From: Deltaproteobacteria bacterium
GTDB taxonomy: Bacteria > Myxococcota_A > Polyangia > Fen-1088
Length of the DNA stretch: 64,000 nucleotides
Direction: 5' to 3'
NCBI GenBank assembly: GCA_033763315.1
Contig: JANRKS010000007.1
Coordinates: forward strand, 122,073-186,072
Below, one piece after another: positions 4,065 through 63,276 of the stretch. Position 1 is the stretch's first letter, and every line of letters begins with the position of its first letter. Position numbers and translations under genes: made by a program. The notes under the pieces are model-generated. The model saw nothing but the letters and a program-made list of their open reading frames with translations. It searched no databases and was not told the DNA's origin.

Positions 4065-4068
4065 CAGC

Positions 4069-5220
4069 CTATGACCGCTTCTTGGTCGCGTTGAACAAGC
4101 GCGGCAGGATGTCAACCAAGTAGCTGCGCCACACGGGCCAGGCATGCGCGCCTTCGGTTTCTTTGTACTCAAACGCGATGCCTTTGCCTTTGAGCTCATC
4201 GATGAATTTGTGGTTTGCCTCAAGCAGGAAGTCATCCTTGCCAATCGCGATCCACAACAGTCGCAGCTTCTTATTTAACTCGGCGGGCTTGGCCAACGCC
4301 GCCGCAAACGCTTCCGTGTTGCGCGTGGCCGAGCTCATCCCGCCCACCCAGGCGAACACCTCGGGGTGGCTCATGCCCAACGTCAACGATTGCTCGCCAC
4401 CCATTGATAAACCCACGATGGCCCGGTCGCTGGCTTTCGCCTTCGTGCGGTAATGGGCATCCACAAAAGGCACCACGGAGCCAAGCATATCGTCCTGGAA
4501 CTTCTGCAGGTTCTCTTGCCATCGCTCGCGGTTCATGGGCACCGCGTGGCCGTCGGTCATCACGATGATCGCTGGCACCGCTTGCTTGGATCCGATCAAG
4601 TTATCCGCAATCACGTTGGCGCGGCCAAACTCTGTCCACGAGGCTTCATTGTCCGAAAACCCATGCAACAGATAAAGCACTGGGTATCGTGTGGCGTTTT
4701 TCTCGTAGCCCGGTGGCGTGTAGACGCGCAAACGACGCTGCTCACCGACGGCCTTTGACATATACGTGTGCAGATGAACCGTGCCTTCGGCAGCGCCTTG
4801 GTACTCATAAGGCGCAGCGGGCACTGAGGGAACCAACACCACGCTGGTGGTGAAGTTGCGCGATGGCTTATTCCACGCGTTGGCAGGATCGATCTGCGTT
4901 TGCCCGTCGATCTTAAAGCTATAGCCCCACAGGCCCGGCTTAATGACGACCATCGCAGACCAGATGCCCTCGGCGTCTTTCTTTAGCGGCGTGGCCGCGC
5001 CGCCAAAGTCGCCGGCCACCGAAACTTCCTTGGCCGCAGGTGCGAACACGCGGAATGTGACGCCGTCGGCGCTCACTTGTGGTGAGGTGACGATCGGGTC
5101 AGGTTTCTTCTTTGGCTTTTCCACCTTGGGTGGATCAGCGGCAAACACGAGGGCCGGCTGCAGAGCTGCGGACCCAACCAAAAACAAACCGATGCGCATA
5201 AAGCGTTGCATGCCAAACAC
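4069..5220 (-). CDS. secreted esterase (PF00756-type alpha/beta hydrolase) with N-terminal Ig-like/CBM48-type module
   Basis: signal peptide MRIGLFLVGSAALQPALVFAA; VTFRVFAPAAKEVSVAGDF E-set-like region; LYLLHGFSDNEASW and GLSMGG nucleophile elbow. Confidence 0.7.
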   Translation of the reverse strand: MFGMQRFMRIGLFLVGSAALQPALVFAADPPKVEKPKKKPDPIVTSPQVSADGVTFRVFAPAAKEVSVAGDFGGAATPLKKDAEGIWSAMVVIKPGLWGYSFKIDGQTQIDPANAWNKPSRNFTTSVVLVPSVPAAPYEYQGAAEGTVHLHTYMSKAVGEQRRLRVYTPPGYEKNATRYPVLYLLHGFSDNEASWTEFGRANVIADNLIGSKQAVPAIIVMTDGHAVPMNRERWQENLQKFQDDMLGSVVPFVDAHYRTKAKASDRAIVGLSMGGEQSLTLGMSHPEVFAWVGGMSSATRNTEAFAAALAKPAELNKKLRLLWIAIGKDDFLLEANHKFIDELKGKGIAFEYKETEGAHAWPVWRSYLVDILPRLFNATKKRS

Positions 5221-47214: not shown

Positions 47215-50200
47215 ATGAAAAGCCCTGTAGATCGCGCGATTTTGGTGCAAGGCGCCCGCCAGAACAACCTCAAGAACATTTCTGTTCGCATTCCGATCGG
47301 GGCCGTCACCGCCGTGACAGGCGTGGCCGGCGCCGGCAAATCGTCGCTCGCGTTCGACATTCTTTATGCCGAGGGCCACCGGCGCTATGTAGAAACGTTC
47401 AGCGCGTACGCACGGCAGTTCCTGGAGCGATTGGATCGCCCCAAAGCCGAACGCGTGGTGGGCGTATTGCCTGCTGTGGCGATTGACCGCACGGCGCCTG
47501 TGCGCACGTCACGCTCCACGGTGGGCACAATGACGTCGATCGCGGACTACCTGCGGGCGCTCTACGCGCGCGCCGCCGTTTTGCGCTGTGATGTATGTGG
47601 CAAGCCTGTGCAGCGGGCAAGTGCGGATGGCATTGCCACGCACTTGTTGTCGACCGCCGCCGGTCGCACGGCCTTGCTGACGTTCGTTGTCCCAAGTGGC
47701 AAGCTCAAGCCCAAGCTGATTCGTGAAGCGTTCGCGCGCAATGGCTTTTCCCGCGTGTGGGAAGACAACAACGTCGTCAAACTCGATGACGCCAAGCTCG
47801 CGCCTGCGGATGGGCAGCTTGTGGTGGTGCTTGATCGCGTGCGGCTGCCCTCCCCCGCCCAGCAAACGGATGACGATCGCAAGCGCTTGGGCGATTCCAT
47901 CGAAGCGTCTTTGCGCTGGGGCCGCGGCGACATGGCCGTGCGCTTTGAAGGCGACAACAACGTGCAATCGTTTAGCGAAAGCTTGCGTTGTTGCGGCGTC
48001 ACGTATGCCGATCCAACGCCCGCCACCTTCTCGTTCAACAACCCCGTGGGCGCTTGCATCACGTGCAAAGGCTTTGGGCGGACGATGGCAATCGATCCCA
48101 ACCTTGTGGTGCCCGATCCGCGCCTTTCGATCAAAGAGGGCTGCATCAAACCGATGCAGTCGCCTTCCTATAAGGAATGCCAAGACGATCTTGAACGCTT
48201 CTGCAAACGCGCCGGCATCGATATGACGGTGCCCTGGGCCAAGCTGCCGGCGGCCTCGCAGAAGCGCGTGTGGCAGGGCGAGCCAGGGGCGCTCACCAAT
48301 TGGAAGAAGCATTGGTATGGCGTCGATGGCTTCTTCGCGTGGCTTGAAGGGCGCAGCTACAAGATGCACGTGCGGGTGCTGCTCTCGCGCTACAGGCACT
48401 ATCTGCCGTGCACGGCCTGCGGCGGCGCACGCTTGCAGCCAGAGGCGTTGCGCTTTTCCATCGAAGGGCAAACGCTGCCGCAACTCGAGGCCGCCACAAT
48501 CGCGAATGTGGATGCGTTTTTTGCCAGCTGGAAGAATCGCCCGCAGGACGCCGCCACAGCCTTGGTGCTGCAAGAGCTGACCTGCCGCTTGCGCTTCCTT
48601 GTGGACGTGGGGTTGGGATACCTCACACTTGGCCGCCAATCGCGCACGCTCTCGGGCGGTGAAGCACAACGCGTGGGTTTGGCCACCGCGCTCGGCAGCG
48701 CTTTGACCAGCACACTTTATGTTTTGGACGAACCATCGGTGGGTTTGCACGCGCGCGATGCAGACCGCTTGGTTGGCGTACTTGCGCGGCTGGCGGAAAA
48801 AGACAACGCCGTGGTGGTGGTGGAACACGATCCGGTGCTGATTCGATCGGCCGACCACGTGATCGATTTGGGCCCCGGCCCTGGCCCCGAAGGCGGCGAA
48901 GTGATCTATGAAGGGCCCGTGCAAGGCTTGTTGGGCCACCCGCGCTCGCAAACAGCGCCCTACTTGCAGGGCCACGCGATGCGGCCGCAGCGTCAGCCGC
49001 GCACGCTCGACTTTAAACACGCCATCGCGATTGAGGGCGCCACCGAAAACAACTTGCAGAACGTGTCTGTGAAGGTGCCGCTTGGCGGCCTTGTGTGCGT
49101 CACGGGCGTCAGCGGCTCAGGCAAATCGACCTTGGTGGATCAAGTGCTTTACCGCAACTTGCGACGACATCTCGGGCAACCCGAATCGGAATTGGGCGCC
49201 TGTGCTGGGTTGCAAGTGTTCTTGCCGCCAGGCAAGGCATTGCAAGACGTAGTGTTCGTGGATCAAACGCCGCTTGGCAGCAGTGGGCGCGTCAACGCCG
49301 CAACATACCTGGGTGTGTTGGATCCAATCCGCAAGGTGTTCGCGAGTACCCAGGCGGCGAAGGACGCAGACGTAAGTGCGTCGGCCTTCTCGTTTAATTC
49401 GGCCGTGGGCGCGTGCCCTTTGTGTGGCGGCGCCGGCTTTGAAAAGATCGAATTGCAATTCCTGCCCGACGCGCACGTGCGCTGCCCTGCGTGTGATGGC
49501 AAACGGTTTCGTCCAGAAACGTTGGCGATTAAATACGAAGGTTACGACATTGCTGAAGTGTTAAACCTTTCGGCATTGGAAGTCAGCGCGCTGTTCAAAC
49601 ATAACAAGCCGCTGGTGCGTGGCTTGGCACCGCTCATCGATTTGGGCCTTGGCTACTTGCCGTTGTCGCAAGCGGCGCCGTCGCTTTCAGGCGGCGAATC
49701 GCAGCGGTTGAAGCTGGCCGCCTATCTGGCGGGTGCCACCACGGCCAAGCCGACGCTTTACATTCTTGATGAGCCGACCACAGGCCTTCACCCCGCCGAC
49801 GTGGCGAAGCTGCTGCAAACGTTGGACCGTTTGGTGGCGGCGGGGCACAGCGTGGTGGTGGTTGAACACAATCTTCAAGTGGCTTGGGCGGCGGATTGGT
49901 TGATCGATCTTGGCCCTGAAGGAGGGGATCAGGGTGGGCGCATCATTGCGCAAGGCACGCCGGAGGCTTTGAGCCAAACCAGCAGCGCCACAGGCGTGGC
50001 CCTGGCGCAGGCTGTACGCAAACAATCCAACACTGTGGCGCGCGCAAGCGAGGCGGCCGCAAAGTATGTGGTGTTCGAGCGGCCGATCGAAATCGAGGGC
50101 GCACGCGAGCACAATCTGAAGAACGTGGCGGCGACGTTTCCGCGCAACAGATTCATCGCCGTCACGGGCGCCTCCGGTTCGGGCAAATCCACGTTGGCGT

Positions 50201-52653
50201 TCGATGTACTTTACGCCGAGGGCCAACGGCGGTTCTTGGACTGTCTTTCCACATATGTGCGCCAGTTTGTGCGGCCTTTGGCACGGCCCGATGTGGATCG
50301 CGTCGAAGGTGTGCCACCCACCGTGGCGCTTGAACAAAAGCTGACACAAGGCTCGTCACTCTCCACCGTGGGCACAGCGTCCGAGGTATACCACTACCTG
50401 CGTTTGGTCTACGCGTGGTTGGGCACGCCCCATTGCCCCAAGTGTGGTCTGGCCGGCGAAGGCGTGGATGCCAAGGCCCTGGTGGGTCGCATCACGTCGC
50501 AGCACGAGGGCCGCGCCATCACGTTGCTGGCGCCGCTTATCCGCAAACGTAAAGGCGCGCACACCGAAGCGATGGCGGCCACCGTGAACCTGGGCGTCGC
50601 ACAACTGCGCGTGGACGGCACCGTCCATATGGCCAAAGCGTTGCCCAAGCTCGATCGCTACCAAGTGCATGATGTGGAGGCGGTGGCTGCATCCATGACA
50701 GCCAAAGACTGGAAAGGCGACGGCGAGGCCACGCTCAAAGCGGCCGTGACGCGCGCCCTCGAACTGGGCGGCGGCCACATCATCGTGGCCAGCGGCGGTC
50801 TGGATCACCACTATTCAACGTTGCGCTCATGCCCGAACTGCGGCTCGGGCCTGCCTGTTCCCGATCCGCGTTTGTTCACGTGGAGCCAGAAGTTCGGCGC
50901 GTGCCCCACGTGTGAAGGCAGGGGCACAACGGAGCCGCATGACGAAGACGTTGATGAAAACAGCGAAACCTTCGTCGGCCGCGCCGAAACAGAGCCGTGC
51001 GTCGCGTGTGACGGCAGCCGCTTGGGTCCGGCCGCGCGATCCGTGCGGATCGCCAACGAACATATTGGCCAGGTGGCGGCGCGTTCGGTGCGTGCGTTGC
51101 AAACGTGGGTGAAGGACACTTTACGCGCCAACCTGCGTATTCCCGTCGAATTGCAAGAGGCTGTGTTGCCCGAGATCGAACGCCGTCTGCAAGTGCTGGA
51201 TCAACTGGGCCTCGGGTACCTAACACTGTCGCGCGGGGCTCACACGCTTTCAACAGGCGAAGCGCAGCGCGTACGGATCGTGGCGCAACTGGCTTCGAAC
51301 CTGCGCGGCGTGTGTTACGTCTTAGATGAACCAACGGTGGGTTTGCACCCGCGCGACGCCGCAGCGCTAACTGACGCTCTTTTGGAGCTACGCGATCGGG
51401 GCAACACTGTTGTTGTGGTGGAACACGATGAAGCCGTGATTCGCCGTGCGGATCACATCATTGATTTAGGGCCGGGCGCTGGCCGGCATGGCGGGCACAT
51501 TGTTGTGGCGGGCAGCCCGGCCACCGTGGCGGCAAACACGCGGTCCATCACGGGCGCGTGGCTACGCGGCCATGGCAACGTGCCACCACCTCCGCGCCGG
51601 TCACTGACCGATGGGCCGCGCCTCGCCTTGCGCGGAGCGAACTTGCACAACCTTTCCAATGTGAACGTCGATGTGCCGGTGGGCCGTTTGGTGTGCGTCA
51701 CGGGCGTCAGCGGCTCGGGTAAATCAACGCTCGTGCGGCGGGTGTTGTTCTCGGCCGTCAAAGCCAAGCTGCAACGCAAGAAATTGCCTGCGTGCGCATC
51801 GGGCCTCACAGGCACAGAGCACGTGGATCGCGCACTTGTTGTGGATGAAGCGCCCATTGGCCGCACTCCACGGTCAGTGCCGGCCACCTACGTGGACATC
51901 CTGACACCGATTCGTTCGCTGTTTGCCGAAACACCCGACGCACGCGCCCGCGGTTTCAAAGCCAACCGCTTTTCGTTCAACGTCAAAGGCGGACGCTGCG
52001 AAAAGTGCGAAGGCCAAGGCCGTTTGAAAGTGAGCATGGCGCTGTTGCCCGACGTCTACATTCCGTGCGCCACGTGCAATGGCGCGCGTTTTAATCCCGA
52101 TACGTTAGCGGTGCGCTACAAAGGCAAAACGATCGCCGACGTGTTGGCGATGTCGGTGGAAGACGCGGTGGTGTTCTTCGAGAGCGCGCGTGCCATCGCG
52201 AATCCCTTGGCGTTCCTCAACGACATTGGCCTCGGCTACCTGCAGCTGGGTCAGCCCAGCCCCACGCTTTCGGGCGGAGAAGCGCAACGAATCAAGCTGG
52301 CGGCGGAACTTTCATTCTCCGGCCAAGGTCGGTCGTTGTTCGTGTTGGATGAACCCACCACAGGACTTCACATGGCCGATGTGGCAAAGCTCATCGCGGC
52401 TTTGCAAAAGCTTGTGGATCGCGGCGACACCGTGGTTGTGATTGAACACAACGTGGATGTGATCCGTGCCGCGGATTGCCTTATCGACATGGGCCCCGAA
52501 GGCGGCGTCGAGGGCGGCCAGGTTGTGGCGTGGGGAACCCCCGAAGAGGTGGCGGCGTGTCCGGCTTCACGAACCGCAGCTTTCCTTGGCCTTCACCCGC
52601 GGGTGGCACCAAAGAAGACAGCACGAACAATGAAGCCACGCACCCTGCAGTGA
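47215..52653 (+). CDS. tandem-duplicated UvrA-like ABC ATPase (two complete UvrA units in one 1812-aa polypeptide)
   Basis: four Walker A sites (GVAGAGKSSLAFD ~aa35, GVSGSGKSTLV ~640, GASGSGKSTLAFD ~970, GVSGSGKSTLV ~1500); four LSGGE signature motifs; CxxC zinc-finger pairs in each half; UvrA-typical ILYAEGQRRYVE..SAYARQF segment present twice. Confidence 0.85.
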   Translation: MKSPVDRAILVQGARQNNLKNISVRIPIGAVTAVTGVAGAGKSSLAFDILYAEGHRRYVETFSAYARQFLERLDRPKAERVVGVLPAVAIDRTAPVRTSRSTVGTMTSIADYLRALYARAAVLRCDVCGKPVQRASADGIATHLLSTAAGRTALLTFVVPSGKLKPKLIREAFARNGFSRVWEDNNVVKLDDAKLAPADGQLVVVLDRVRLPSPAQQTDDDRKRLGDSIEASLRWGRGDMAVRFEGDNNVQSFSESLRCCGVTYADPTPATFSFNNPVGACITCKGFGRTMAIDPNLVVPDPRLSIKEGCIKPMQSPSYKECQDDLERFCKRAGIDMTVPWAKLPAASQKRVWQGEPGALTNWKKHWYGVDGFFAWLEGRSYKMHVRVLLSRYRHYLPCTACGGARLQPEALRFSIEGQTLPQLEAATIANVDAFFASWKNRPQDAATALVLQELTCRLRFLVDVGLGYLTLGRQSRTLSGGEAQRVGLATALGSALTSTLYVLDEPSVGLHARDADRLVGVLARLAEKDNAVVVVEHDPVLIRSADHVIDLGPGPGPEGGEVIYEGPVQGLLGHPRSQTAPYLQGHAMRPQRQPRTLDFKHAIAIEGATENNLQNVSVKVPLGGLVCVTGVSGSGKSTLVDQVLYRNLRRHLGQPESELGACAGLQVFLPPGKALQDVVFVDQTPLGSSGRVNAATYLGVLDPIRKVFASTQAAKDADVSASAFSFNSAVGACPLCGGAGFEKIELQFLPDAHVRCPACDGKRFRPETLAIKYEGYDIAEVLNLSALEVSALFKHNKPLVRGLAPLIDLGLGYLPLSQAAPSLSGGESQRLKLAAYLAGATTAKPTLYILDEPTTGLHPADVAKLLQTLDRLVAAGHSVVVVEHNLQVAWAADWLIDLGPEGGDQGGRIIAQGTPEALSQTSSATGVALAQAVRKQSNTVARASEAAAKYVVFERPIEIEGAREHNLKNVAATFPRNRFIAVTGASGSGKSTLAFDVLYAEGQRRFLDCLSTYVRQFVRPLARPDVDRVEGVPPTVALEQKLTQGSSLSTVGTASEVYHYLRLVYAWLGTPHCPKCGLAGEGVDAKALVGRITSQHEGRAITLLAPLIRKRKGAHTEAMAATVNLGVAQLRVDGTVHMAKALPKLDRYQVHDVEAVAASMTAKDWKGDGEATLKAAVTRALELGGGHIIVASGGLDHHYSTLRSCPNCGSGLPVPDPRLFTWSQKFGACPTCEGRGTTEPHDEDVDENSETFVGRAETEPCVACDGSRLGPAARSVRIANEHIGQVAARSVRALQTWVKDTLRANLRIPVELQEAVLPEIERRLQVLDQLGLGYLTLSRGAHTLSTGEAQRVRIVAQLASNLRGVCYVLDEPTVGLHPRDAAALTDALLELRDRGNTVVVVEHDEAVIRRADHIIDLGPGAGRHGGHIVVAGSPATVAANTRSITGAWLRGHGNVPPPPRRSLTDGPRLALRGANLHNLSNVNVDVPVGRLVCVTGVSGSGKSTLVRRVLFSAVKAKLQRKKLPACASGLTGTEHVDRALVVDEAPIGRTPRSVPATYVDILTPIRSLFAETPDARARGFKANRFSFNVKGGRCEKCEGQGRLKVSMALLPDVYIPCATCNGARFNPDTLAVRYKGKTIADVLAMSVEDAVVFFESARAIANPLAFLNDIGLGYLQLGQPSPTLSGGEAQRIKLAAELSFSGQGRSLFVLDEPTTGLHMADVAKLIAALQKLVDRGDTVVVIEHNVDVIRAADCLIDMGPEGGVEGGQVVAWGTPEEVAACPASRTAAFLGLHPRVAPKKTARTMKPRTLQ

Positions 52654-53303: not shown

Positions 53304-54428
53304 ATGCACAGTAGATCAATTGCCAGATTCTTATGCGGAGCGGCTTCGATTTCGATGCTCGGAAGTTTCTCCTTTCAAGCACAAGCTCGAACAGTGCAAG
53401 GCGTTGATCGCGACGGTGATGGACGAGCAGACGTGGCCGTTTACCGTCCATTAAACGCTCGATGGTTTGTCACGATATCAAACGGCGGTGAGAGCAACGA
53501 AGTATTTGGAAACAAAGGAGATATCGCTGTGCCAGGTGACTATGACGGTGACGGCAGAACAGACCTCGCGGTCTTCCATCCTTCGAATGGCTTCTGGTTC
53601 ATCAATCACTCGTCGGGCATTGCACCGAAAGCCAAACAATGGGGGCTATCCGGGGATGTGCCAGTGCCAGCGGACTACGACGGCGATGGCAAGACGGATC
53701 TTGCGGTCTATCGTCCGTCTTCCGGCTACTGGTACCTGATCAATTCAAGGAGTGGTCTAAGCGAATCACGTGGTTGGGGGCTTTCAGACGACGTACCACT
53801 TCCTGGCGACTACAATGGAGACGGACGTTTTGACTTTGCTGTGTACAGACCATCACTGGCTCAATGGCACATCCTGCTCAATGGAAGCGCACAGACGATC
53901 TTTTCAATATGGGGAGATGCTGGCGATGTTCCGGTGGTCGCAGATTTCGACGGCGATTGGGTAACTGATACGGCCATCTATCGCCCAAGGGATGGGTACT
54001 TCCATATCAAGCTTGCAAGCGGACTGCGCCAATACCGATTCGTTGGAGCAAACCAAATACCCATCGTCGGCGACTATGATGGCGACGGCAAGGCTGACCC
54101 CGCTGTTTGGAACACGCAAACCAGCCTCTTCACGATCAGCCTGATGGCAACGAACGTGATGAAGACGGAAGTCCTAGGGTTTAATGACTTCACGGAGTAC
54201 GGCCGAGATGTCCCGCTTGTTTCCACTCTCTATGCTCAGCAAAGCGTTCCGAGGATCGCTTTAGCGCAAGGGACTTGGTGTTGTGCGTCCTGTAGCCCGG
54301 ATGGCAAGACTTGCGGACTATGCCAGGTAAAGCCTGGTACAGGATTGTGTCCAACTGGGACCAAAACAAAAACCGGAGACTGCGAGTCGACGGATGATGG
54401 AGACTTTTTAGACCTGACTTGTAGATGA
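53304..54428 (+). CDS. secreted FG-GAP/VCBS-repeat propeller protein with Cys-rich C-terminal tail
   Basis: signal peptide; six to seven D(Y/F)DGDG(K/R)(T/A)D.AV(Y/F)RP...W repeats; low GC (~52%). Confidence 0.65.
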   Translation: MHSRSIARFLCGAASISMLGSFSFQAQARTVQGVDRDGDGRADVAVYRPLNARWFVTISNGGESNEVFGNKGDIAVPGDYDGDGRTDLAVFHPSNGFWFINHSSGIAPKAKQWGLSGDVPVPADYDGDGKTDLAVYRPSSGYWYLINSRSGLSESRGWGLSDDVPLPGDYNGDGRFDFAVYRPSLAQWHILLNGSAQTIFSIWGDAGDVPVVADFDGDWVTDTAIYRPRDGYFHIKLASGLRQYRFVGANQIPIVGDYDGDGKADPAVWNTQTSLFTISLMATNVMKTEVLGFNDFTEYGRDVPLVSTLYAQQSVPRIALAQGTWCCASCSPDGKTCGLCQVKPGTGLCPTGTKTKTGDCESTDDGDFLDLTCR

Positions 54429-54643
54429 TCAACAATTCTCATCTGCCACAGAAATGTGGCTCAAGGTCGCTGCGACGATCTCTGCATGGGTCGCGCATCC
54501 CCCCTCAGAAACTGCAGTCGAGGTGTGGCCATTGACGGCCTGTCTCTCCTGACAAAAACAAGTGCGGCGGCAGTTTGTGCTGCGCATGGTTCTTAGCTCG
54601 TTTCTCACCACATTCAGAAGTTCTCAGATCAAAGGTATCTCAT

Positions 54644-56611
54644 ATGAAGAAGACTCAATGGATTTTCACTATCCTTCTGATGGGGATTCCCTTCACTTTT
54701 ACCTCGCTGGGAATCGACAAACCTACGGTAGCAGCAGAGCCGGCTGCTGCAGAACCTGCAGGTCCCTTTGAAAAAGCCTGGGCTGTCCTCACGAAACTCA
54801 AATCAGACCTCGATCCATGGATCGATGCGGCCAGCTATGCCAAAAAGTTGATTGAAAAGTTTTACGGGGTACCAACAGAAATCGAGCTAGCTCGAGATGA
54901 AATCATTGCCGAGATAAAGAACACCCAGATTACACGGCTGGAAGGAACGATAATCGGAATGCTCAATAACTTCGCCGATGTTGTCCGTGATCCCAATAAC
55001 ATGCACAACAGCTTTCAGCTTAATCTCATCAAATCTCAAGCAGATCTGGTGCTCGGCGAAATGCAATCGTTGATAGAAAGACGTGATTCGGTTTCTGTGA
55101 AAGAGCTTGCCGTCGCGAGCAATCTCGCCACAGCCGTTGGCGCTGCGGCCCGAAAGCTTCTTGGTATGGAGTCCGCGATTTCTCCCCTTCTCCAGCGACA
55201 GATGGATATGAACTATTCGGTTGTAGGTGTTGATTCTTACTATGTGAATAGGTCCGCAGTGCGAGACTCTGCGGGCTCCAGCTTGCTGTGGTCCGTGATC
55301 GATACGCCAGCGTTTTACTGTGATAGCACGGAGGCACGGGCTGAACTTGCTAACAAGCGCATTATAACCCTACACTCCCCGCCAGGCGGAACGATCGCGA
55401 ATGCCGTTTATTGCAAGCACAAGGATGGAAAGTGCTTCGCGTATTACAAGGACCCAAGTCCGATCGCAAATGGCCTTGCGGAGGGAGTGGGAAGTCCCAA
55501 AACAACATTTCCAATATGCTGGAAAGAAACGCACTCGCGAGCATTGAGAGCCTTCGATGATAATCCGACGGTCAAGGCCATCAAAAAGGCGATGCAGCAA
55601 TCATATTTTTCAGGATACAGGCCATCGGCGATATCAGGACCCTTCATCATTAGCGGATGTCTGTCAAAGGCGGCAAATTCAATTCTGGACTTCGACGGTG
55701 ATTGCACGAGCGATCTCGCTGTTTACCGCCCAGGGTACACTAGTTCCTTCGAAGTTCTTCTGAGTCGGACAGCGAGCTTCAATTCCACCTCAATGCCTCT
55801 CGGTGGCTACAACGACCTTCCTGTCCCAGGGGACTACGATGGTGATGGAAAATCAGACGCCGCCGCTTATAGGATCGCAGACGGTCTGTGGTCGATAGCC
55901 CCTAGCTCCGGCGCTGCGCCGTACTCGCGGGCATGGGGGCTAGAAGGAGACACACCCGTTCCTGCTGACTACGATGGTGACGGAATGACCGACATCGCGG
56001 TCTACCGGCCTAGCAATGGCCATTGGTATGTTTGGCCGAGTGGTGGTGGCGATAGATATGCGGTGCCATGGGGGCTGAGCACGGACATTCCAGTCCCCGG
56101 CGACTACGATGGCGACGCGAAAGCAGATTTCACGATTTGGCGCCCAGGGGATGGCAATTGGCACGTGCGTCCTACATCAGGAGCGGCGCCATACGCAGTT
56201 CAGTGGGGGCTCCAAGGTGATCATCCAATCCCACGAGATTTTGATGGCGACGGACGACTTGACTTTGCTGTTCGCAGGGACGGTCAATATGGCGTTTACG
56301 TAATGCCAAGTAACGGAGGAAGCAGATACTTCGTGGCGTTTGGGAACCCAGACGACATTGCCGTTCCGGCTGACTTTGATGGCGATGGGAAGGCGGACCA
56401 GGCCGTTTGGCAAAGAGCCAAAGCATTTTGGTGGTACAAAAGGAGCACGGGAGGGGATCGAGTCCCCTACGACTCTAATTGGGGGCGCTCACCGCCTCCA
56501 AATTGGGAGCCCGTGAATCCGACTATCGGTCGACAATGGGGAACGAACCGAGATTTCCCCCTTGGTTCGCAGCTTCACGGAAACTTCTCCTGGGCCGGCG
56601 TATTTAGGTAG
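54644..56611 (+). CDS. secreted protein: unknown ~350-aa N-terminal domain + FG-GAP/VCBS-repeat propeller
   Basis: ATG 54644 (MKKTQWIFTILLMGIPFTFTSLG); six DYDGDG.TD.AVYRP...W repeats paralogous to upstream gene; low GC. Confidence 0.65.
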   Translation: MKKTQWIFTILLMGIPFTFTSLGIDKPTVAAEPAAAEPAGPFEKAWAVLTKLKSDLDPWIDAASYAKKLIEKFYGVPTEIELARDEIIAEIKNTQITRLEGTIIGMLNNFADVVRDPNNMHNSFQLNLIKSQADLVLGEMQSLIERRDSVSVKELAVASNLATAVGAAARKLLGMESAISPLLQRQMDMNYSVVGVDSYYVNRSAVRDSAGSSLLWSVIDTPAFYCDSTEARAELANKRIITLHSPPGGTIANAVYCKHKDGKCFAYYKDPSPIANGLAEGVGSPKTTFPICWKETHSRALRAFDDNPTVKAIKKAMQQSYFSGYRPSAISGPFIISGCLSKAANSILDFDGDCTSDLAVYRPGYTSSFEVLLSRTASFNSTSMPLGGYNDLPVPGDYDGDGKSDAAAYRIADGLWSIAPSSGAAPYSRAWGLEGDTPVPADYDGDGMTDIAVYRPSNGHWYVWPSGGGDRYAVPWGLSTDIPVPGDYDGDAKADFTIWRPGDGNWHVRPTSGAAPYAVQWGLQGDHPIPRDFDGDGRLDFAVRRDGQYGVYVMPSNGGSRYFVAFGNPDDIAVPADFDGDGKADQAVWQRAKAFWWYKRSTGGDRVPYDSNWGRSPPPNWEPVNPTIGRQWGTNRDFPLGSQLHGNFSWAGVFR

Positions 56612-56692: not shown

Positions 56693-57480
56693 CGTAAGCG
56701 TTCAGGCCCCCGAAAAAGTTGTCAAAATCGAATGCCTGACGATTTGCTAAGAAAGGGGATCGACAGCAGATCGCAAACGTGATCTACCTTGGTCGTTGGA
56801 CGACAAGGCAAAGATCGCAGAGCTCACGGCGCAGCTGCTGGCCAAAGACGTAGTGATCGAGGAGCTGCGGCAGGAGATCGTTGAGCTCAAGGGTGTGGTG
56901 GCTGAGTTGAGGGCGCTGGTGGCCGATTTGACCGAGAGGCTTGGCCAGAACTCTCGCAATTCACACAAGCCGTCGTCAAGCGATGGCCCCGGCGCCACCA
57001 GGAATTCGGGCAAGCCTAAACACGGCTCCGATCGGAAGCGCGGTGGCCAAAAGGGCCACCGCGGCCGCCATCGTGAGCTGCTGCCCGCAGATCAGGTCGA
57101 CGCTGTAGTGGATGTGTTCCCATCGCATTGCGAGGGGTGCGCGGTGCGCGGAGCCGCTGCCACCGATTCCTGACATGCAAGCCGCACGCAGGTGACCGAG
57201 GTGCCACCAATAAAGCCTCACACGACTGAATATCGCCAGCATGCGGTGACATGCCCATGTTGCGCGCACTCCACGCGCGCCACGGGCGCCGGCATCATTC
57301 CAAGATCCCCGTTTGGCCCGCGTTTAATGGCCCTGGTGGCCTTGCTTAGCGGCGTGTACCATCTGAGCCGCCGTCGCACAGTGCAGGCGCTGCACGACAT
57401 CCTAGGCGTGCGCATTTCGTTGGGCGCCGTCAGCGCTGTTGAAGCACGTGTTAGTGATGCGGTTAAGCATAGAGCGTGTC
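56693..57480 (+). mobile_element. truncated IS66-family insertion sequence remnant (left end only)
   Basis: IS66-type terminal repeat start GTAAGCG at 56693; TnpC-like leucine-zipper and zf-IS66 regions; no DDE domain and no right-end CGCTTAC found. Confidence 0.7.
56796..57480 (+). pseudogene. IS66 transposase (TnpC) fragment, frameshifted and 3'-truncated
   Basis: 56796..57173 encodes the leucine-zipper N-terminus (RKRGGQKGHRGRHRELLP); 57192.. continues in another frame with zf-IS66 (TEYRQHAVTCPCCAH) and the start of the DDE region (GPRLMALVALLSGVYHLSRRRTVQALHDILGV), then similarity is lost near 57480. Confidence 0.65.
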
Positions 57481-57614: not shown

Positions 57615-57956
57615 TCATGCCGTGACGAACTCCCACGCGTGGAACAGCTTGGCTTCCTCCTTCGGCGAGAACGCCAAGAGCGGCGAGGCTTCGTGGTACG
57701 CGCTAAATCGAGCCGCGGCGCTGTTCGGATCGAGCTGCCAATCCGCGCGATACTCTTTGCTGCCGCGGAGTAAACGCTCGAAGCGCAGTCGCGCCACAAG
57801 TAGTGCACTCATGCGCAACCCATCTGTGTTTATGGCGGCCAAAGCCGCGCGTAGCGGATGCTGGTCGTCCAACGCCTTGATCGCCGATGCAAGCGCGCCC
57901 TGCGGATCGCGCGCTCTCAGCACATGTACAAGGATGTTTTCGTAGTCATCCATCAT
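57615..57956 (-). CDS. small hypothetical protein (113 aa) directly downstream of the DUF692 gene; candidate partner subunit
   Basis: 12-nt gap to DUF692 stop; does not show the DUF2063 LAVYRNNV motif; lies ~135 bp from the IS66 truncation point. Confidence 0.4.
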   Translation of the reverse strand: MMDDYENILVHVLRARDPQGALASAIKALDDQHPLRAALAAINTDGLRMSALLVARLRFERLLRGSKEYRADWQLDPNSAAARFSAYHEASPLLAFSPKEEAKLFHAWEFVTA

Positions 57957-57968
57957 AGATGGCTTCCT

Positions 57969-58856
57969 TCATGCCGCTTGCTTCACCACACACGATCGCA
58001 GGCGCCGCATTTCTTCTCGAAGCAGGCCCACGTCAGAGTCCGCGATGGTGCCCTCCATGCGTTCCAAAACGATCGCGCGCAAATGCGAGCATCGAGGCAA
58101 TGCGACGTCGAGCAAACGCCACACCTCAGGCGGAATAGGGCCATCGTGGCCATCCAAACGCAGGCTGCGGCCGCCAGGCAGCCAACGTGGATCAGAATCA
58201 GTGCCGCCGGCCATATGGATTTCGATCACTTGGTCAAGCGGCAGTGCTGCAAGGTACTCCTCTGCATCAAACCCAAGATTGCTGGCCATCGCGAACACAT
58301 TCGCCAAATCCAACAACAGCCGCCGACTTGGGTTCTGCAGAACGCTGCGAATGAATGCCGGCTCATCCAACGGGTTGCCGCACACAAAATGCGATGCTGG
58401 GTTTTCGATGCCCACCACGGGCACAACTGTACTCATCTCATCAAGGCGCAAGCGAACGCATTCCGCTGCTTCCGCCGTCATAGGCAACGGCAACGGAAGC
58501 GCCGTATTCTGGCCTGCAGGCGCCGTAATGCCCAGATGATCTGTGTACCAAAGAAACTGGAACAGGGCCTGATCACGGGCCATTGCAGCTCTCCACTGTG
58601 CGCGGCGATACACCTCCGCAGCGCTGCCACCTCCGCCAACCGAATAGCCAACACCGTGGGCAAGAAACCTCTGCCCACTGCGCCTTCCCATGCTTAAGAA
58701 CAAGGCATGATAGTCGTTCGTATGCAGTCGCCCTTCTACTTGCTGCCACAACGTTTCGGGTGCCACTTCAAAGATATCGGGCTCTTCTTCGAGGAAGGCC
58801 CCCAAGATGTCTAGCGTCGCTTCATCGGGTGGCAACACGAAGCCTACCGGGATCAT
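57969..58856 (-). CDS. DUF692-family protein (MbnB/TglH-like multinuclear non-heme iron oxidative enzyme, MNIO)
   Basis: 295 aa; N-terminal VGFVL...DIFEVAPETLW; C-terminal LLLDLANVFAMASNLGFDAEEYLAALPLDQVIEIHMAGG matches the DUF692 core (LLLDvNNvyV...NhgfDp..yl..lp...V.eiHLAGg). Confidence 0.75.
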   Translation of the reverse strand: MIPVGFVLPPDEATLDILGAFLEEEPDIFEVAPETLWQQVEGRLHTNDYHALFLSMGRRSGQRFLAHGVGYSVGGGGSAAEVYRRAQWRAAMARDQALFQFLWYTDHLGITAPAGQNTALPLPLPMTAEAAECVRLRLDEMSTVVPVVGIENPASHFVCGNPLDEPAFIRSVLQNPSRRLLLDLANVFAMASNLGFDAEEYLAALPLDQVIEIHMAGGTDSDPRWLPGGRSLRLDGHDGPIPPEVWRLLDVALPRCSHLRAIVLERMEGTIADSDVGLLREEMRRLRSCVVKQAA

Positions 58857-59692
58857 TGGTGTCCCTCCGGCTCGAGTCTTACGTTGAACGGAGCCAGCGG
58901 CCGGCCTGCGAAGAGCACGTTGTTATCTGCTGTGAAAACCAAACTTTCGGCTGAGCCCGTTTGCACAACACAACCGGCTTGATCAATAACCTCCACATTT
59001 CCGCTGGCATCAAGGCGGACGATGTTATTGCCTTGCATGTGCAGGCCTACCCAAGCCGTAAGCTGTCGCGCCCGCTCGGAGGATGGTTCCTGCACCGGCT
59101 GAACCTCGCTGCTCACCGGCAAAGCAGGTTCTGCTTTCGAAAGCTCGACGAGAGCGAACGCAACATCCGCATTCTCAGGCAGCGCTGCCCATGCGCTCCG
59201 CATTAGCATCTGGGGCCCCTCAAGCTGAACCGCATTGCCGAACCCCAGCGGCATCACGTGGCTGGCTGATAGTGCTTTCGCGAGTTCGGTCAACACCGCC
59301 GGCTGCGCGTCAACGAGGATGGCGTCGCTGCGAACGTCTTGGTCAATGACGAACCGCTGCAATGACAAAGCGGCCTCCTCTGCAGACGACGACGGTGCGT
59401 GCCAGGATGCTTTCCACACAACGCCACCTTGACCCCACAGGCGCTCGCGTTTTCCGTTAATCCTTGTTTCCACGGTGTCTTCGATCGGATCAAATTCCAC
59501 CAGTAACCCCGACGTCACGGGCATCTGGTTTACCCATAAGGCTTCAGCTTTCCGCGTGGCCTCGTCCACGAGCACGTAGCTCGAGCCATGCATGGCAGCG
59601 TCGCCGCACCCAACGTGCAAAAGCAGCGCTGCGATCACCGGCAGGCAAACAATGTTCCTATTCATTCGTTCCCCTTTCGTCCTGGGAGTCAA
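58853..59692 (-). CDS. hypothetical lipoprotein (279 aa) translationally coupled to the DUF692 gene
   Basis: lipobox LLLHVGC; 4-nt overlap with DUF692 start; few Cys; no recognised domain. Confidence 0.5.
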   Translation of the reverse strand: MTPRTKGERMNRNIVCLPVIAALLLHVGCGDAAMHGSSYVLVDEATRKAEALWVNQMPVTSGLLVEFDPIEDTVETRINGKRERLWGQGGVVWKASWHAPSSSAEEAALSLQRFVIDQDVRSDAILVDAQPAVLTELAKALSASHVMPLGFGNAVQLEGPQMLMRSAWAALPENADVAFALVELSKAEPALPVSSEVQPVQEPSSERARQLTAWVGLHMQGNNIVRLDASGNVEVIDQAGCVVQTGSAESLVFTADNNVLFAGRPLAPFNVRLEPEGHQ

Positions 59693-60695
59693 ATGTTAAG
59701 AAATCGAGGATGCGCCGGCTGCGGGCTGGCACGTGGCCCATGCCGCAGGCGAACCCAAACATCGAATCATCCTTTTCACCAGGCAGCCATTCGATGTCCA
59801 AGCCACACCCGTTTGCTTGAGCCCAACGGCTTCCCGCAATACGGCGGTGGCAGAGCGCCATGCGCGAGGCCTCCGCCACGAGATGCGTCAGCCTGCCGCG
59901 TTCACTGCCCTGCGCGGCATAACTTTGTGCAAGCAGCGACGCGGCTGCCGCTAGAACCACATCGGCAAGCTGTGGGTTGGTTGCAACTTCGTTGGCTGTG
60001 ATCGCCTGCGCCTTGAGAAACGTGTTCGCTCCGTTGTGGGTGCCCAGCTTGTTTCTTGCCTGATCCGCGCGCACCAGAAGCGCATCTTTGGATGGAGTCA
60101 AGCCTTTGTTCAGCAACTCTGTCAGTAAGCGAATTCGCAAAGAGATGAGCTCATCTTGTTTACGCTCCCGACGTGCGAATGCCGGGGCCCAGTCCTTCTC
60201 TGAACTATCACCTTCCAGCTCCACATCGTATGGGTCTGGTAAGGTGACATCAAGGTTTGTGGTGCGGGCAGGCAAGGCTTCAGTTTCGATGAGCACCATC
60301 AACGGATCGTTCGACGATGGCGGTGTTTGTGGTGCCAATCTGTTGATCGCGAACATCGGAGCACAAACAACCTCGCACAAACCGAGCAAGGCCAACGCTT
60401 CATCCCCGCCGTGGTTCAGCAACTCGCCGAACGCGTGAGCGCGCCCCCAATCGTGTTCTTTCGCAACGAAAACCAGCAGCGGCTTTCCCACTGCGGCTGC
60501 GCGTGCAAAGGCGGCTGAAAGAAGCTGGTCCCAACGCAGTGCTTGCATAAATGCCCGCGCTGGCTTTGCCTTGCCGCCAGGGCAGGCCTCATCAGCAAAC
60601 GCTGCTCGAATCCAAATCGGAATCGCCAGCGCCGCCGCCGACTTAACAAACGCGCGGCGTGCAGCATGCCTTCCAAGTCGCTCCCTAGCCTTCAT
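59658..60695 (-). CDS. hypothetical exported protein with twin-arginine (Tat) signal
   Basis: N-terminal AARRAFVKSAAALAIPIW fits S/T-RRxFLK plus hydrophobic core; 35-nt overlap with downstream lipoprotein ORF. Confidence 0.5.
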   Translation of the reverse strand: MKARERLGRHAARRAFVKSAAALAIPIWIRAAFADEACPGGKAKPARAFMQALRWDQLLSAAFARAAAVGKPLLVFVAKEHDWGRAHAFGELLNHGGDEALALLGLCEVVCAPMFAINRLAPQTPPSSNDPLMVLIETEALPARTTNLDVTLPDPYDVELEGDSSEKDWAPAFARRERKQDELISLRIRLLTELLNKGLTPSKDALLVRADQARNKLGTHNGANTFLKAQAITANEVATNPQLADVVLAAAASLLAQSYAAQGSERGRLTHLVAEASRMALCHRRIAGSRWAQANGCGLDIEWLPGEKDDSMFGFACGMGHVPARSRRILDFLTFDSQDERGTNE

Positions 60696-60976: not shown

Positions 60977-61282
60977 CGCAACTGAAGCTCGCCAAACCTT
61001 GCCACCCGGCCTTGCTTTGGCCCGAGCCCTCTGATCGCATGACGTACACCGAACTTCTATGGACATGCTGTTTCTGGTGCCTCTCTCGACCAGGAACTCG
61101 TCTTCGCCGCAGCGCAAGCAATCCTCAAGCTCATGATGTTGCTCCAGCTGCTCCCCAAGGGCTCGCCAGGGCGCGATGCCGGCACGAAGCGATCTTTGAC
61201 GTCCCACGGGGATCGCGCCGATCCCATTTTGGGCTTGTAAGTGCGGCAATTGGGCCGTGCGCTTGTAGGCATGGCCAATGCA

Positions 61283-61957
61283 ATGAAAAGCAGCATGAAA
61301 CGCATCGAAGCTCTTTTAATCGCCCTGTTATCATTCCCCTTGGTGGCTGCGGACGGCGGAGGCGGTTGCGGCGAGCATCAACCTGGAAATGGCGACTCAA
61401 GGACGTGGACCACCGGTGTGCTTCCGCAGGCGGAAGGCACGCCGCAACCAATGTCAGCACCGTGGCTCAGTGGACCCAATTGCTGGAAGGATTTAGTGGC
61501 TGCGGCTCAAGCTTGTCTGCGCACCCCGCAGGCCTTCGGCGCTTTTGATGAGCGTCGCCAAACATGCAGTCTTTCTGGCGGTGGTCGACTGGAATTGGCA
61601 GGGCCGATCTCGACGCCCGCCGAGGATTCTAGAATCTATGTCGCGACCGATTGGCGCCTGTGGGGACCGCACGGGCGTGTATGTGTCACGGGAAAGCTAT
61701 TGGCGGCCAATCGTTCGGTGGTAGACGTCGAGGGAAAGTCCGCGTTGTTTGAAAGTTCCACACTGACGGCGTACGGTGTGACGTGCCCGGACGGACGTAC
61801 GTTCCGAAATGACATCGACGGAGTGGATCCCACTTTCGGCGCGTTGTGGCTTGCTGGAAGGGCACCAGGGGTGGTGTTCGAGTGCAAAGGCAAGACCTGT
61901 ACGATGAGTCTAAAGGGCGGCGCGGCAGGGGATACGCCCATCGCCTCGTGCCAATGA
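61283..61957 (+). CDS. secreted hypothetical protein with several Cys
   Basis: signal peptide MKSSMKRIEALLIALLSFPLVAADG; no recognised domain. Confidence 0.45.
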   Translation: MKSSMKRIEALLIALLSFPLVAADGGGGCGEHQPGNGDSRTWTTGVLPQAEGTPQPMSAPWLSGPNCWKDLVAAAQACLRTPQAFGAFDERRQTCSLSGGGRLELAGPISTPAEDSRIYVATDWRLWGPHGRVCVTGKLLAANRSVVDVEGKSALFESSTLTAYGVTCPDGRTFRNDIDGVDPTFGALWLAGRAPGVVFECKGKTCTMSLKGGAAGDTPIASCQ

Positions 61958-62208: not shown

Positions 62209-63276
62209 GTGCCACACGCAGTTCCCCGCGCACTTGTTCACTTCCACATATACCTTGCGTTCTTGGTTGCTTGCTCGTCAGGACCCAACGAACAAAGCGA
62301 GGATCATCCAATAGACGACGCGTCCGACGACAACGGCGGGTCGATGGCTTCAGCCGGGGGCGCGGCCGGCCCACGGAACAGCGCTGGGGTTTCGGGGCAA
62401 GAGGGTGGAGACGGTGGGCACGCTGCAAGTGGTGGCGCTGCTGGTGCCAGTGGGATCATCGGAACGGGCGGCAACCCAGGCTCAGGGGGAGCAACCGCCA
62501 ACACGGGCGGCCTGGCCGGGGGCTCAACACAAGCCCCCTGGCTAACGTTGCCGGCGCGAAGCGTGGGTTGTGGAAAGGCTGCCAAGGGCACCGGATCCTA
62601 TGTGCGCCAAGATATGCAAGTCGCGGCTAAGGCCCGGGCAAACTTTCTTTGGCTTCCCTTAAATTACGACCCCACCAAAGCGCATGAGCTTCTAATTTCA
62701 CTACATGGGACGGGCGGCGTGGCGCCGGGCGATGGCAAAGGGATCGAAACTGCGGCGGGCAACGAAGCCATCATCATGACACCGCAAGGTATTGATGGGA
62801 TGTGGCAGCTGGGCGCTGACGGAGAAGACGTTGCGTTCTTTGATGCAATGTATGCTTTTGCAACCGAGAACTTCTGCGTGAATCAGCAGCGTGTGTTTGT
62901 TACAGGCTTTAGCCTGGGTGCAGCGATGTCGAATTTGTTGGGCTGTGTTCGCGGCGACAAAATTCGCGGCATTGGTCCCCTTGCGGGATGGCAACCTGCA
63001 CGACAAACGGATTGCCGTGGGCGGCCCGCCGCATGGTTTGCGCATGGAACGTCGGATGGCGCCGTTCCCATCGTTCAAGGAACGCGTTCCCTCGGTTTGC
63101 AGATGGTCCGCAACGGATGTGAAGCGGCCACCGCGCCAACGCCGCCGTCGCCTTGTGTTGCTCAACAGGGCTGCGATACGGGATCACCTGTTGTGTGGTG
63201 TGAAATTCCCGGAGATCACGGCACCCCTATTGAATGGTCGGTGCCCGCGCTGTGGAAATTTTTCGCCGCCCTATAG
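62209..63276 (+). CDS. lipoprotein with Gly-rich linker and PHB-depolymerase/esterase-family alpha/beta hydrolase domain
   Basis: GTG 62209; lipobox LVACSSG; Gly/Ala/Ser-rich linker; ISLHGTGG and TGFSLGAAMS nucleophile elbow. Confidence 0.65.
   Translation: MPHAVPRALVHFHIYLAFLVACSSGPNEQSEDHPIDDASDDNGGSMASAGGAAGPRNSAGVSGQEGGDGGHAASGGAAGASGIIGTGGNPGSGGATANTGGLAGGSTQAPWLTLPARSVGCGKAAKGTGSYVRQDMQVAAKARANFLWLPLNYDPTKAHELLISLHGTGGVAPGDGKGIETAAGNEAIIMTPQGIDGMWQLGADGEDVAFFDAMYAFATENFCVNQQRVFVTGFSLGAAMSNLLGCVRGDKIRGIGPLAGWQPARQTDCRGRPAAWFAHGTSDGAVPIVQGTRSLGLQMVRNGCEAATAPTPPSPCVAQQGCDTGSPVVWCEIPGDHGTPIEWSVPALWKFFAAL

Follow-up and report, generated by a model that had tools for sequence, protein, structure and literature searches.

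What does an enzyme of the MNIO (DUF692) family act on when no short precursor peptide is encoded beside it? The question is raised by a locus in a 64,000-nucleotide stretch of contig JANRKS010000007.1 from a Deltaproteobacteria bacterium, which we shall call the window. Four co-directional open reading frames (ORFs) on the minus strand fill positions 57615-60695, just as an earlier note made from the sequence had placed them. They encode, in this order, a protein with a twin-arginine (Tat) signal, a lipoprotein, the MNIO enzyme and a small helical protein, here named A, B, M and D ( Table 1 ). The M protein is identical to an NCBI entry from a ‘Deltaproteobacteria bacterium’ metagenome-assembled genome (MAG). 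On balance, our analysis favors the view that this locus is an intact operon for post-translational protein modification, in which A would be modified at Cys317 by M together with D, through a chemistry resembling that of ChrH, and would be exported by the Tat route. The parts of this proposal are not equally firm: that A is the substrate of the MNIO we consider highly probable, while the chances that the chemistry is of the ChrH/DybH/MelH type are slightly under even.

Several readings in the earlier note proved to be sound. M does belong to DUF692, since a hidden Markov model (HMM) search against PF05114 (MbnB_TglH_ChrH) gives 122.2 bits (E 2.9e-35, cutoff 25) over profile positions 20-243 of 263. 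The stop codon of B and the start codon of M overlap as ATGA at 58853-58856, and it is thus B, not A, that is translationally coupled to the MNIO in this window. The protein encoded before B has the twin-arginine pattern, with RR present in 88% of 102 A homologues. The lack of a small Cys-rich precursor was confirmed as well: flank ORF lists, a scan for small Cys-rich ORFs and a six-frame motif scan gave no short Cys-rich ORF with any support in the flanks or in the window, and in 1.1 Mb of related loci, read in all six frames, the core motif described below does not occur in any small ORF. Finally, neither D nor any other protein here matches PF09836 (DUF2063) at E≤1.

The C-terminal core of protein A

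The MNIOs of the ChrH type act on a CPxCGxG core, usually CPACGMG, and their reaction starts at the second Cys (PMC10214503; PMC13056109). This Cys, the Gly and the Met become the heterocycle (PMC10214503); the product consists of a macrocycle plus a hydantoin, with the thiol of the first Cys joined to the beta-carbon of the former Cys and a net change of -4 Da, and ChrH additionally S-methylates (PMC10214503; PMC13056109). The substrate is not necessarily a peptide, as MelH and the separately encoded helical protein MelHc modify MelA1, a 34-kDa secreted protein ending in a CPxCGxG-type core (PMC13056109, PNAS 2026).

The C-G-M-G of A, the only in-frame CGMG of the region, corresponds exactly to the four residues that close the chryseobasin core CPACGMG. 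The C-terminus is also the best-conserved part of the A family, consisting of G288, W291, G-C297-G, E302, an acidic linker and then (A/G/P)-C317-G-M-(G/A)-(H/F)-V-P-x-x-S-x-R-F-L-x-F; in the window this module reads G..WA...GC297G...E, acidic linker, A-C317-G-M-G-H-V-P..S.R-F-L.F. Residues C317, G318 and M319 are invariant in the A2 alignment, and among 146 unique C-termini containing CGxG the frequencies along CGMG are C 100%, G 100%, M 90% and G 100%. The core lies 18-48 residues from the end of the protein, ahead of a conserved VP..S.RFL.F. In most members a second Cys is located 14-21 residues upstream of the core Cys (Cys297 in the window, 20 residues upstream), and 84-90% of members keep Cys111, which belongs to a strand of the thioredoxin domain. 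The window’s copy reads FACGMG, with the CGMG present and the first Cys, at -3, absent. The full CP[PA]CG[ML][GA], followed by ..RFL.F, occurs at the core position of 13 distinct A members, all but one of them from Planctomycetota-type loci, and single-Cys and full CPPCGMG cores can even coexist in one array of A copies (e.g. L038, L070).

In two loci where A seemed to be missing, divergent versions of it were recognized. In one of them, from a Planctomycetaceae MAG (L045), the place of A directly upstream of the MNIO (at 5983) is taken by a protein of ~125 aa (L045:5450-5838, + strand) with a signal or transmembrane anchor, a Pro/Ala-rich linker and the C-terminus ..GGCPTCGLGYVDARQRSFLDHL, whose core is CPTCGLG; the long ORF listed at this site is an over-extension antisense to a real 840-aa gene. 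This small protein is a minimal precursor with the same core module. In the other (L023), two tandem Tat-signal, GRPLLL-containing proteins (L023:2825-3583 and 3580-4368, + strand), which the A HMM missed, precede an M-D fusion. They end in ..CGLG..RRFANVF and ..CGIV..ARFANAY, and since these cores are divergent (..CGLGAQLVNPLGRRFANVF and ..CGIVVQLLDPLGARFANAY), the Gly-Met-Gly of the core is not universal.

It is mainly because CGMG is the reactive part of CPACGMG, and because of the relatives with a full core and the L045 protein, that we name A as the substrate and favor a ChrH-like chemistry. A has other traits of a precursor too: its gene is immediately upstream of M and has 1-7 tandem paralogues, and the protein has an N-terminal export signal and a near-invariant Cys.

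The N-terminus of A consists of A-R-R-A-F-V-K, then SAAALAIPIWI, then AFA|DE; its homologues typically have (D/N/K)RR.FL followed by an h-region and (A/G)F(A/G). By motif, A would accordingly be a Tat substrate, as it has the counterparts of the S/T-R-R-x-F-L-K-like motif, the h-region and the AxA site. The Pfam profile TAT_signal (PF10518) matches 6 of 66 A members weakly and the window’s copy not at all, a weak result that can be put down to the shortness of the motif. These matches and one weak match to Thioredoxin_7 are all that Pfam and NCBIfam returned for the 66 homologues, and the window’s A and B have no match in either, even at E≤1. The family is nevertheless large (991 clusters at 50% identity with E≤1e-3, 860 with E≤1e-10), and those database homologues that bear any name are called ‘hypothetical protein’.

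An AlphaFold2 model of A, built with 66 sequences (pLDDT 86.8), has a thioredoxin fold. The model predicts a long helical insert (166-282) and a C-terminal beta-hairpin followed by a loop of lower confidence (pLDDT ~66), and the sole near-invariant Cys of A sits in this flexible C-terminal loop. At the position of the catalytic CxxC the window has DWGRAH and the family consensus is W.RG.AFG; because there is no Cys at this position, we do not class A as a thiol-disulfide oxidoreductase.

Conservation of the A-M-D unit

To survey related loci, we retrieved 80 of them from one-genome-per-species contigs with a clade alignment of M, and the ORFs were scanned with HMMs of the seed proteins (83 loci scanned); these genome loci come from Myxococcota, Planctomycetota and a few contigs labelled Acidobacteria. 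In the reverse test, a metagenome collection was searched with A alone, using a narrower alignment, which yielded 64 loci. A was detected in 76 of the 83 genome loci, on the same strand as M and directly upstream of it in 1-7 tandem copies, with the one exception of L052, where A is downstream of M on the opposite strand. Arrays of 4-7 copies are found in the Planctomycetota loci L015, L038, L050, L054 and L070 (upstream of position 6000 in each). D was detected directly downstream of M in 80 of the 83. Starting from A, 35 metagenome loci have at least 1 kb of sequence beyond the last A, and in 31 of them M follows immediately. The called genes around M homologues form the same cassette in Sorangium cellulosum So ce56 (sce0141), Minicystis rosea and a Planctomycetota MAG, and the translations identify the A, B and D of all three as homologues. 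All-against-all clustering of the flanking ORFs revealed no further conserved gene, just lineage-local synteny and a scattered Ser/Thr kinase family.

One neighbor peculiar to a single genome may be mentioned here. In Minicystis rosea a 135-aa lipoprotein-like protein is encoded directly after D (L003:7272-7679, + strand); it has a C-terminal CRECH haem-binding motif and a weak match to Cytochrom_C_2 (cytochrome c'). For Minicystis rosea alone, this gene may point to a redox setting of the system.

The MNIO and its probable partner

Enzymes of the MNIO family hold their two or three iron ions with conserved His, Asp and Glu (also Asn) residues. Possible counterparts in M are H67, H107, E151, N152, D183, N186, E212, H214, D235, H237, E265 and E268, which are invariant in 20 members of the M clade; these invariant residues align with the HG / DH / EN / D..N / H / D.H / ER blocks of 3bww, which together with TglH (8hci_D) is the closest solved structure to M. 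Homologues of M at 41-57% identity number in the hundreds. The enzyme falls far under the cutoff of every NCBIfam MNIO equivalog: 99.5 bits of the required 310 for BufB, 98.8 of 360 for HvfB, 97 of 600 for ChrH and 54 of 400 for ApyH. The ChrH profile NF050165 (the 97 bits just given) does not place it in that subfamily; with five members of the subfamily, whose sequences were transcribed from PMC12636315 Table S2, it shares 24-30% identity, and that table contains no signature peptides of its clade. Judged from its sequence, M is a member of a separate MNIO clade and not of the ChrH subfamily. Nor does the locus have the components of a methanobactin system, as the window’s proteins give no MbnB- or MbnC-specific match in NCBIfam or Pfam, MbnB chains were not reached from M by sequence at E≤0.01, and a short MbnA precursor is lacking.

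Protein D has no match in Pfam or NCBIfam, even at E≤1. It is not a PME-type 1 partner, having neither the Pfam DUF2063 signature nor the ~250 aa with an RRE domain of that type. The PME-type 2 partners described in PMC12452194 are encoded after the MNIO and show no DUF2063 signature; HHpred or AlphaFold relates them to NGO1945 (3dee) or TglI, and many of them (e.g. at 115 aa) leave no room for an RRE domain. D has the position, the missing signature and the structural relationship of this type, and is thus probably a DUF2063-like N-terminal domain without an RRE (‘PME-type 2’). Three known partners are among the top five for D, which is hard to ascribe to chance; against the PDB, a sequence-profile search gave a chance match (E 0.37) and Foldseek nothing below E 5. 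An hhalign comparison of D with the C-terminal helical domain of ChrH gave a probability of 0.1%, a weak negative because the ChrH sequences were noisy from optical character recognition. In 13 loci M and D are in one ORF, and the databases hold five M-D fusions (P0010, P0020, P0044, P0048 and P0102). In view of its position and of these fusions, D is most likely the partner of the enzyme, and we think it likely that this partner is an obligatory one. In Sorangium, the D homologues (L002:6900-7454, + strand, from So ce56, and others) have N-terminal low-complexity GGAGEAR repeats before the conserved 110-aa domain, an extension that may stem partly from over-long start calls.

The lipoprotein B

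The signal peptide of B ends in LHVGC, a slightly non-canonical lipobox, while the family (29 stronger B matches) mostly has L-[AS]-[AG]-G-C. B was detected in 29 of the 83 genome loci, almost all of them labelled Myxococcota, and in 24 of the 64 metagenome loci; hardly any of the Planctomycetota-labelled loci with A-M-D have it, and it may stand before or after A. The earlier note had proposed that the substrate might be a full-length lipoprotein or a secreted protein. Of these two suggestions the secreted protein, A, is the one supported by our results. B is the less likely substrate because most loci lack it and its sequence contains no core of the MNIO type, whereas A is constant, often arrayed and CGMG-bearing. 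We regard B as a lineage-specific periplasmic accessory and not as a substrate.

Proposed modification and alternative explanations

In the sequence of events that we propose, A would be made as a thioredoxin-fold protein (~31 kDa when mature) with a twin-arginine signal. In the cytoplasm, M complexed with D would bind its exposed C-terminal module and oxidise Cys317, and a second thiol – probably that of Cys297, rather than that of a Cys at -3 as in CPxCGxG – would then be cross-linked to the beta-carbon of the former Cys. The folded and modified A would be exported by Tat to the periplasm, where in Myxococcota it would probably work with the co-encoded lipoprotein B. The gene content, the domain and fold assignments, the motif, the conservation of genes and motif, and the M-D fusions are what the analysis shows directly; Tat export after modification and any periplasmic role are inferred.

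Some considerations weigh against this proposal. M is outside the ChrH subfamily and scores about equally against ChrH, BufB and HvfB, so that the chemistry is not transferable by homology. The window’s A is without the first Cys of CPxCGxG, and in ChrA the corresponding change, C63S, gave just a shunt product. In a Tat-exported A, Cys111, Cys297 and Cys317 could instead bind a metal or pair in disulfides, and the Tat signal of the window’s own copy is itself read from its motif.

The same actors might, for instance, carry out another chemistry: Cys317 (perhaps with Cys297 or Cys111) would end up as a 5-thiooxazole or an oxazolone-thioamide, in the manner of BufB, HvfB or MbnB, and A would be a periplasmic copper- or metal-binding ‘protein-sized bufferin’. 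The scores of M against BufB and HvfB, as high as that against ChrH, agree with this, as does the single Cys of the window’s core. Moreover, most of the MNIO systems surveyed in PMC12452194 have signal-peptide-bearing, Cys-containing metallophore precursors, some of them very long, and in the EGKCG motif of the oxazolins, too, the targeted Cys stands before a Gly. However, the Gly-Met-Gly after the Cys of A is as conserved as the Cys itself, which fits the ChrH heterocycle with its Gly and Met amide nitrogens and corresponds to no known requirement for a thiooxazole; 13 A members have the exact CPxCGxG; DoxX, sigma/anti-sigma factors and a true DUF2063 partner are absent from the clusters; and bufferin-type precursors have Sec signals and PME-type 1 partners. 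We therefore hold a bufferin-type reaction to be unlikely, although sequence alone cannot decide between hydantoin- and thiooxazole-type chemistry.

It could also be argued that A is not the substrate at all but a periplasmic thioredoxin-like accessory or client-binding protein, and that M and D act on B, on a small peptide or on a substrate encoded elsewhere. A folded protein of 250-350 aa would be unusual as the target of an MNIO; in the window B is encoded right before M, to which it is translationally coupled by the overlap, and a single Cys is conserved toward the C-terminal end of B; and PMC12452194 cautions that it is hazardous to name unknown ORFs as precursors when a small ORF is absent. 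Yet B is missing from most loci, including nearly all the Planctomycetota-labelled ones, while M-D stays; the closest relatives have the order B-A-M-D; A bears the ChrA-type core and, like precursor genes, forms arrays of copies; the minimal precursor of L045, with the same core, stands in its place there; and the six-frame search gave no small ORF with the motif. An accessory role for A thus appears improbable.

The earlier note had raised still another possibility, a decayed cluster, and had suggested that an IS66 element may have removed a downstream gene. In its full form this reading would have the insertion delete a standard precursor, a DUF2063 partner or both, so that what is left no longer functions. 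There is indeed a truncated IS66 remnant beyond D, ending ~145 bp from its stop codon, and the A-B-M-D order of the window differs from the B-A-M-D order of its close relatives. The remnant matches DUF6444 with 57 bits (56796-57173), has a frameshift between 57173 and 57192, and continues as a transposase fragment from 57192 to ~57470; the fragment scores 62.9 bits against NF033517 (cutoff 180) over profile positions 48-138 of 387, and is not a complete DDE transposase. The same frameshifted remnant occurs on an independently assembled, identical 13.7-kb contig from run SRR33270649 (L001:8993-9970), and is therefore a fixed feature of the organism and not an assembly artefact. It took no member of the cluster with it, however, as nothing conserved follows D in the relatives. 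The four ORFs are intact and keep their conserved residues, and the A-M-D core is present in more than 75 of the 83 loci found via M and in 31 of 35 found via A. Nor did intact relatives show the standard arrangement of precursor plus DUF2063 that would have explained the locus as a disrupted one: the IS-free genomes of So ce56 and Minicystis rosea and many MAGs have the same four-gene set. Decay is thus very improbable, and the A-B-M-D order is simply a local rearrangement.

Relationship to known MNIO systems

The preferred reading, modification of A by M and D, brings the locus closest to the mel cluster of Candidatus Melainabacteria (MelA1/MelH/MelHc; PMC13056109, preprint PMC12636315). Both have a secreted substrate of ~30 kDa, an MNIO and a small helical protein in the same order; in both the small helical protein is fused to the MNIO in other members, the C-terminal core contains Cys-Gly-Met-Gly, and there is no short precursor. 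The differences are nonetheless considerable. The scaffold here is a thioredoxin fold and that of mel is TPR; the signal is twin-arginine as opposed to Sec/SPI; the core is 18-48 residues from the C-terminus and mostly has a single Cys plus another one 14-21 residues upstream; and M, as noted, shares just 24-30% identity with ChrH-type enzymes. The C-terminal helical bundle of ChrH, encoded separately in Cyanobacteria as MelHc, is needed for activity (PMC13056109), whereas D resembles the N-terminal domains of DUF2063, MbnC and TglI and has no detectable similarity to that bundle. In layout, and probably in target, the system thus resembles mel, yet its enzyme forms a separate clade, and its substrate scaffold, export signal and partner differ.

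With the chryseobasin/DAG-RiPP systems (ChrA-ChrH, DybA-DybH) the locus would share an MNIO acting on a CGMG core, a precursor with an export signal and, by inference here, cytoplasmic modification before export. Their precursors, however, are peptides of 50-80 aa ending in CPACGMG and DybH is partner-free, while the present locus has a folded protein, a conserved partner gene and an enzyme of another clade. The bufferins and oxazolins (BufA-BufB-BufC; HvfA-HvfB-HvfC) have the same order of substrate, MNIO and partner, a signal-bearing Cys substrate that can be protein-sized, and a periplasmic destination (predicted here); unlike them, M falls below the BufB and HvfB cutoffs, the four proteins here contain no DUF2282, BUF_6/12Cys or EGKCG, the partner is without a DUF2063 signature plus RRE, there are no DoxX or sigma-factor genes, and the signal is Tat, not Sec. 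As to the partner, the PME-type 2 proteins of Antoine et al. 2025 (PMC12452194) are, like D, short, helical, encoded directly after the MNIO, without a Pfam DUF2063 match and related to NGO1945 (3dee)/TglI. In that survey, though, they are correlated with substrates without a signal peptide, the signal-peptide substrates pairing with PME-type 1 partners (PMC12452194); here the substrate has a Tat signal, and the subfamily of D is absent there.

How much of this is new? That MNIOs can act on proteins is already published (predicted in PMC12452194 and shown for MelA1 in PMC13056109), and so are short DUF2063-like partners. The supplement of PMC12452194 includes Sorangium MNIOs as counts and accession numbers, with no precursor assigned, and its main text has no mention of Tat, thioredoxin, Myxococc*, Planctomyc* or Sorangium. 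Full-text literature searches turned up neither this enzyme clade nor the thioredoxin-fold A family, nor any MNIO substrate with a Tat signal, and nothing closer than the systems compared above. The ‘undescribed substrate class’ of the earlier note needs to be restated accordingly: a protein of >30 kDa as MNIO substrate has been published for the ChrH subfamily (PMC13056109), and what is undescribed is the enzyme clade, the thioredoxin-fold substrate and its Tat signal.

Other features of the window

The coordinates of the operon, of the domains of A and of the IS66 remnant are collected in Table 1. A GGAGG is found 7 nt ahead of the ATG of A. For B, the independent gene call on the identical 13.7-kb contig starts at an ATG at 59665 and gives 270 aa, which is more probably correct than the 279 aa from TTG. 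Scans for sigma-70 promoters and terminators performed no better than on shuffled sequence. The gene order B-A-M-D is found in the closest relatives (two with long contigs), in Sorangium and in Minicystis (L002/L003).

Table 1. Positions in the window of the four genes, of segments of A and of the nearby IS66 remnant.
Feature	Position	Strand	Description
Gene A	59658..60695	-	345 aa; Tat-signal, thioredoxin-fold protein; probable MNIO substrate
Gene B	58853..59692	-	Lipoprotein; 279 aa from TTG start; accessory
Gene M	57969..58856	-	295 aa; MNIO (DUF692) enzyme
Gene D	57615..57956	-	113 aa; all-helical; probable MNIO partner
Tat signal peptide of A, residues 1-34	60594..60695	-	RRAFVK at 60642-60659; predicted cleavage after AFA; motif-based
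Thioredoxin-like domain of A, ~residues 44-150	60246..60566	-	Without CxxC (DWGRAH there); Cys111 codon 60363-60365
C-terminal core module of A, residues 288-332	59700..59834	-	Cys317 codon 59745-59747; Cys297 codon 59805-59807
IS66-family transposase remnant	56796..57470	+	Frameshifted, 3'-truncated; convergent with the operon; outside the system

Upstream of the operon and divergent from it are the genes for a 238-aa secreted protein without a family match (61241-61957, + strand) and for a 355-aa lipoprotein-like protein with a Gly/Ala-rich linker and a sub-threshold match to Abhydrolase_2, an esterase family (62209-63276, + strand). Beyond the IS66 remnant there are two secreted proteins with FG-GAP/VCBS repeats (53304-54428 and 54575-56611, both + strand), the former with a Cys-rich C-terminal tail (..WCCASCSPDGKTCGLCQVKPGTGLCPTGTKTKTGDCES..LTCR); an FG-GAP protein adjoins the cassette also on the contig of the close relative P0034. 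Still further away, a 1812-aa ORF (47215-52653, + strand) combines the DNA-binding and interaction domains of UvrA with several ABC ATPase modules and is about twice the standard length of UvrA.

Significance

MNIOs are an actively studied source of unusual peptide chemistry, and whether they make protein-derived cofactors as well is only beginning to be explored, with long precursors predicted in 2025 and MelA1 published in 2026. In this context A-M-D is a compact and widespread three-gene unit that is directly testable. The full CPxCGxG core, the single-Cys core with its distal Cys and the 125-aa precursor of L045 make up a natural series for the study of enzyme recognition and ring size, and the locus extends the PME-type 2 partners to a signal-peptide-bearing substrate, counter to the correlation in the 2025 survey. 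The Tat route would fit with modification and folding before export. If the A family, encountered here mostly in Myxococcota and Planctomycetota, is indeed one of Tat-exported thioredoxin-fold proteins with an MNIO-installed heterocycle or cross-link at CGMG – a possibility that we put forward tentatively – its members would be the first folded, enzyme-like MNIO substrates and the first to be Tat-routed. In most of them ring closure would fall to a Cys at a distance of 14-21 residues, producing a macrocycle of the chryseobasin type much larger than any known, and the modified loop could be a built-in cofactor, a redox or metal site that replaces the lost CxxC.

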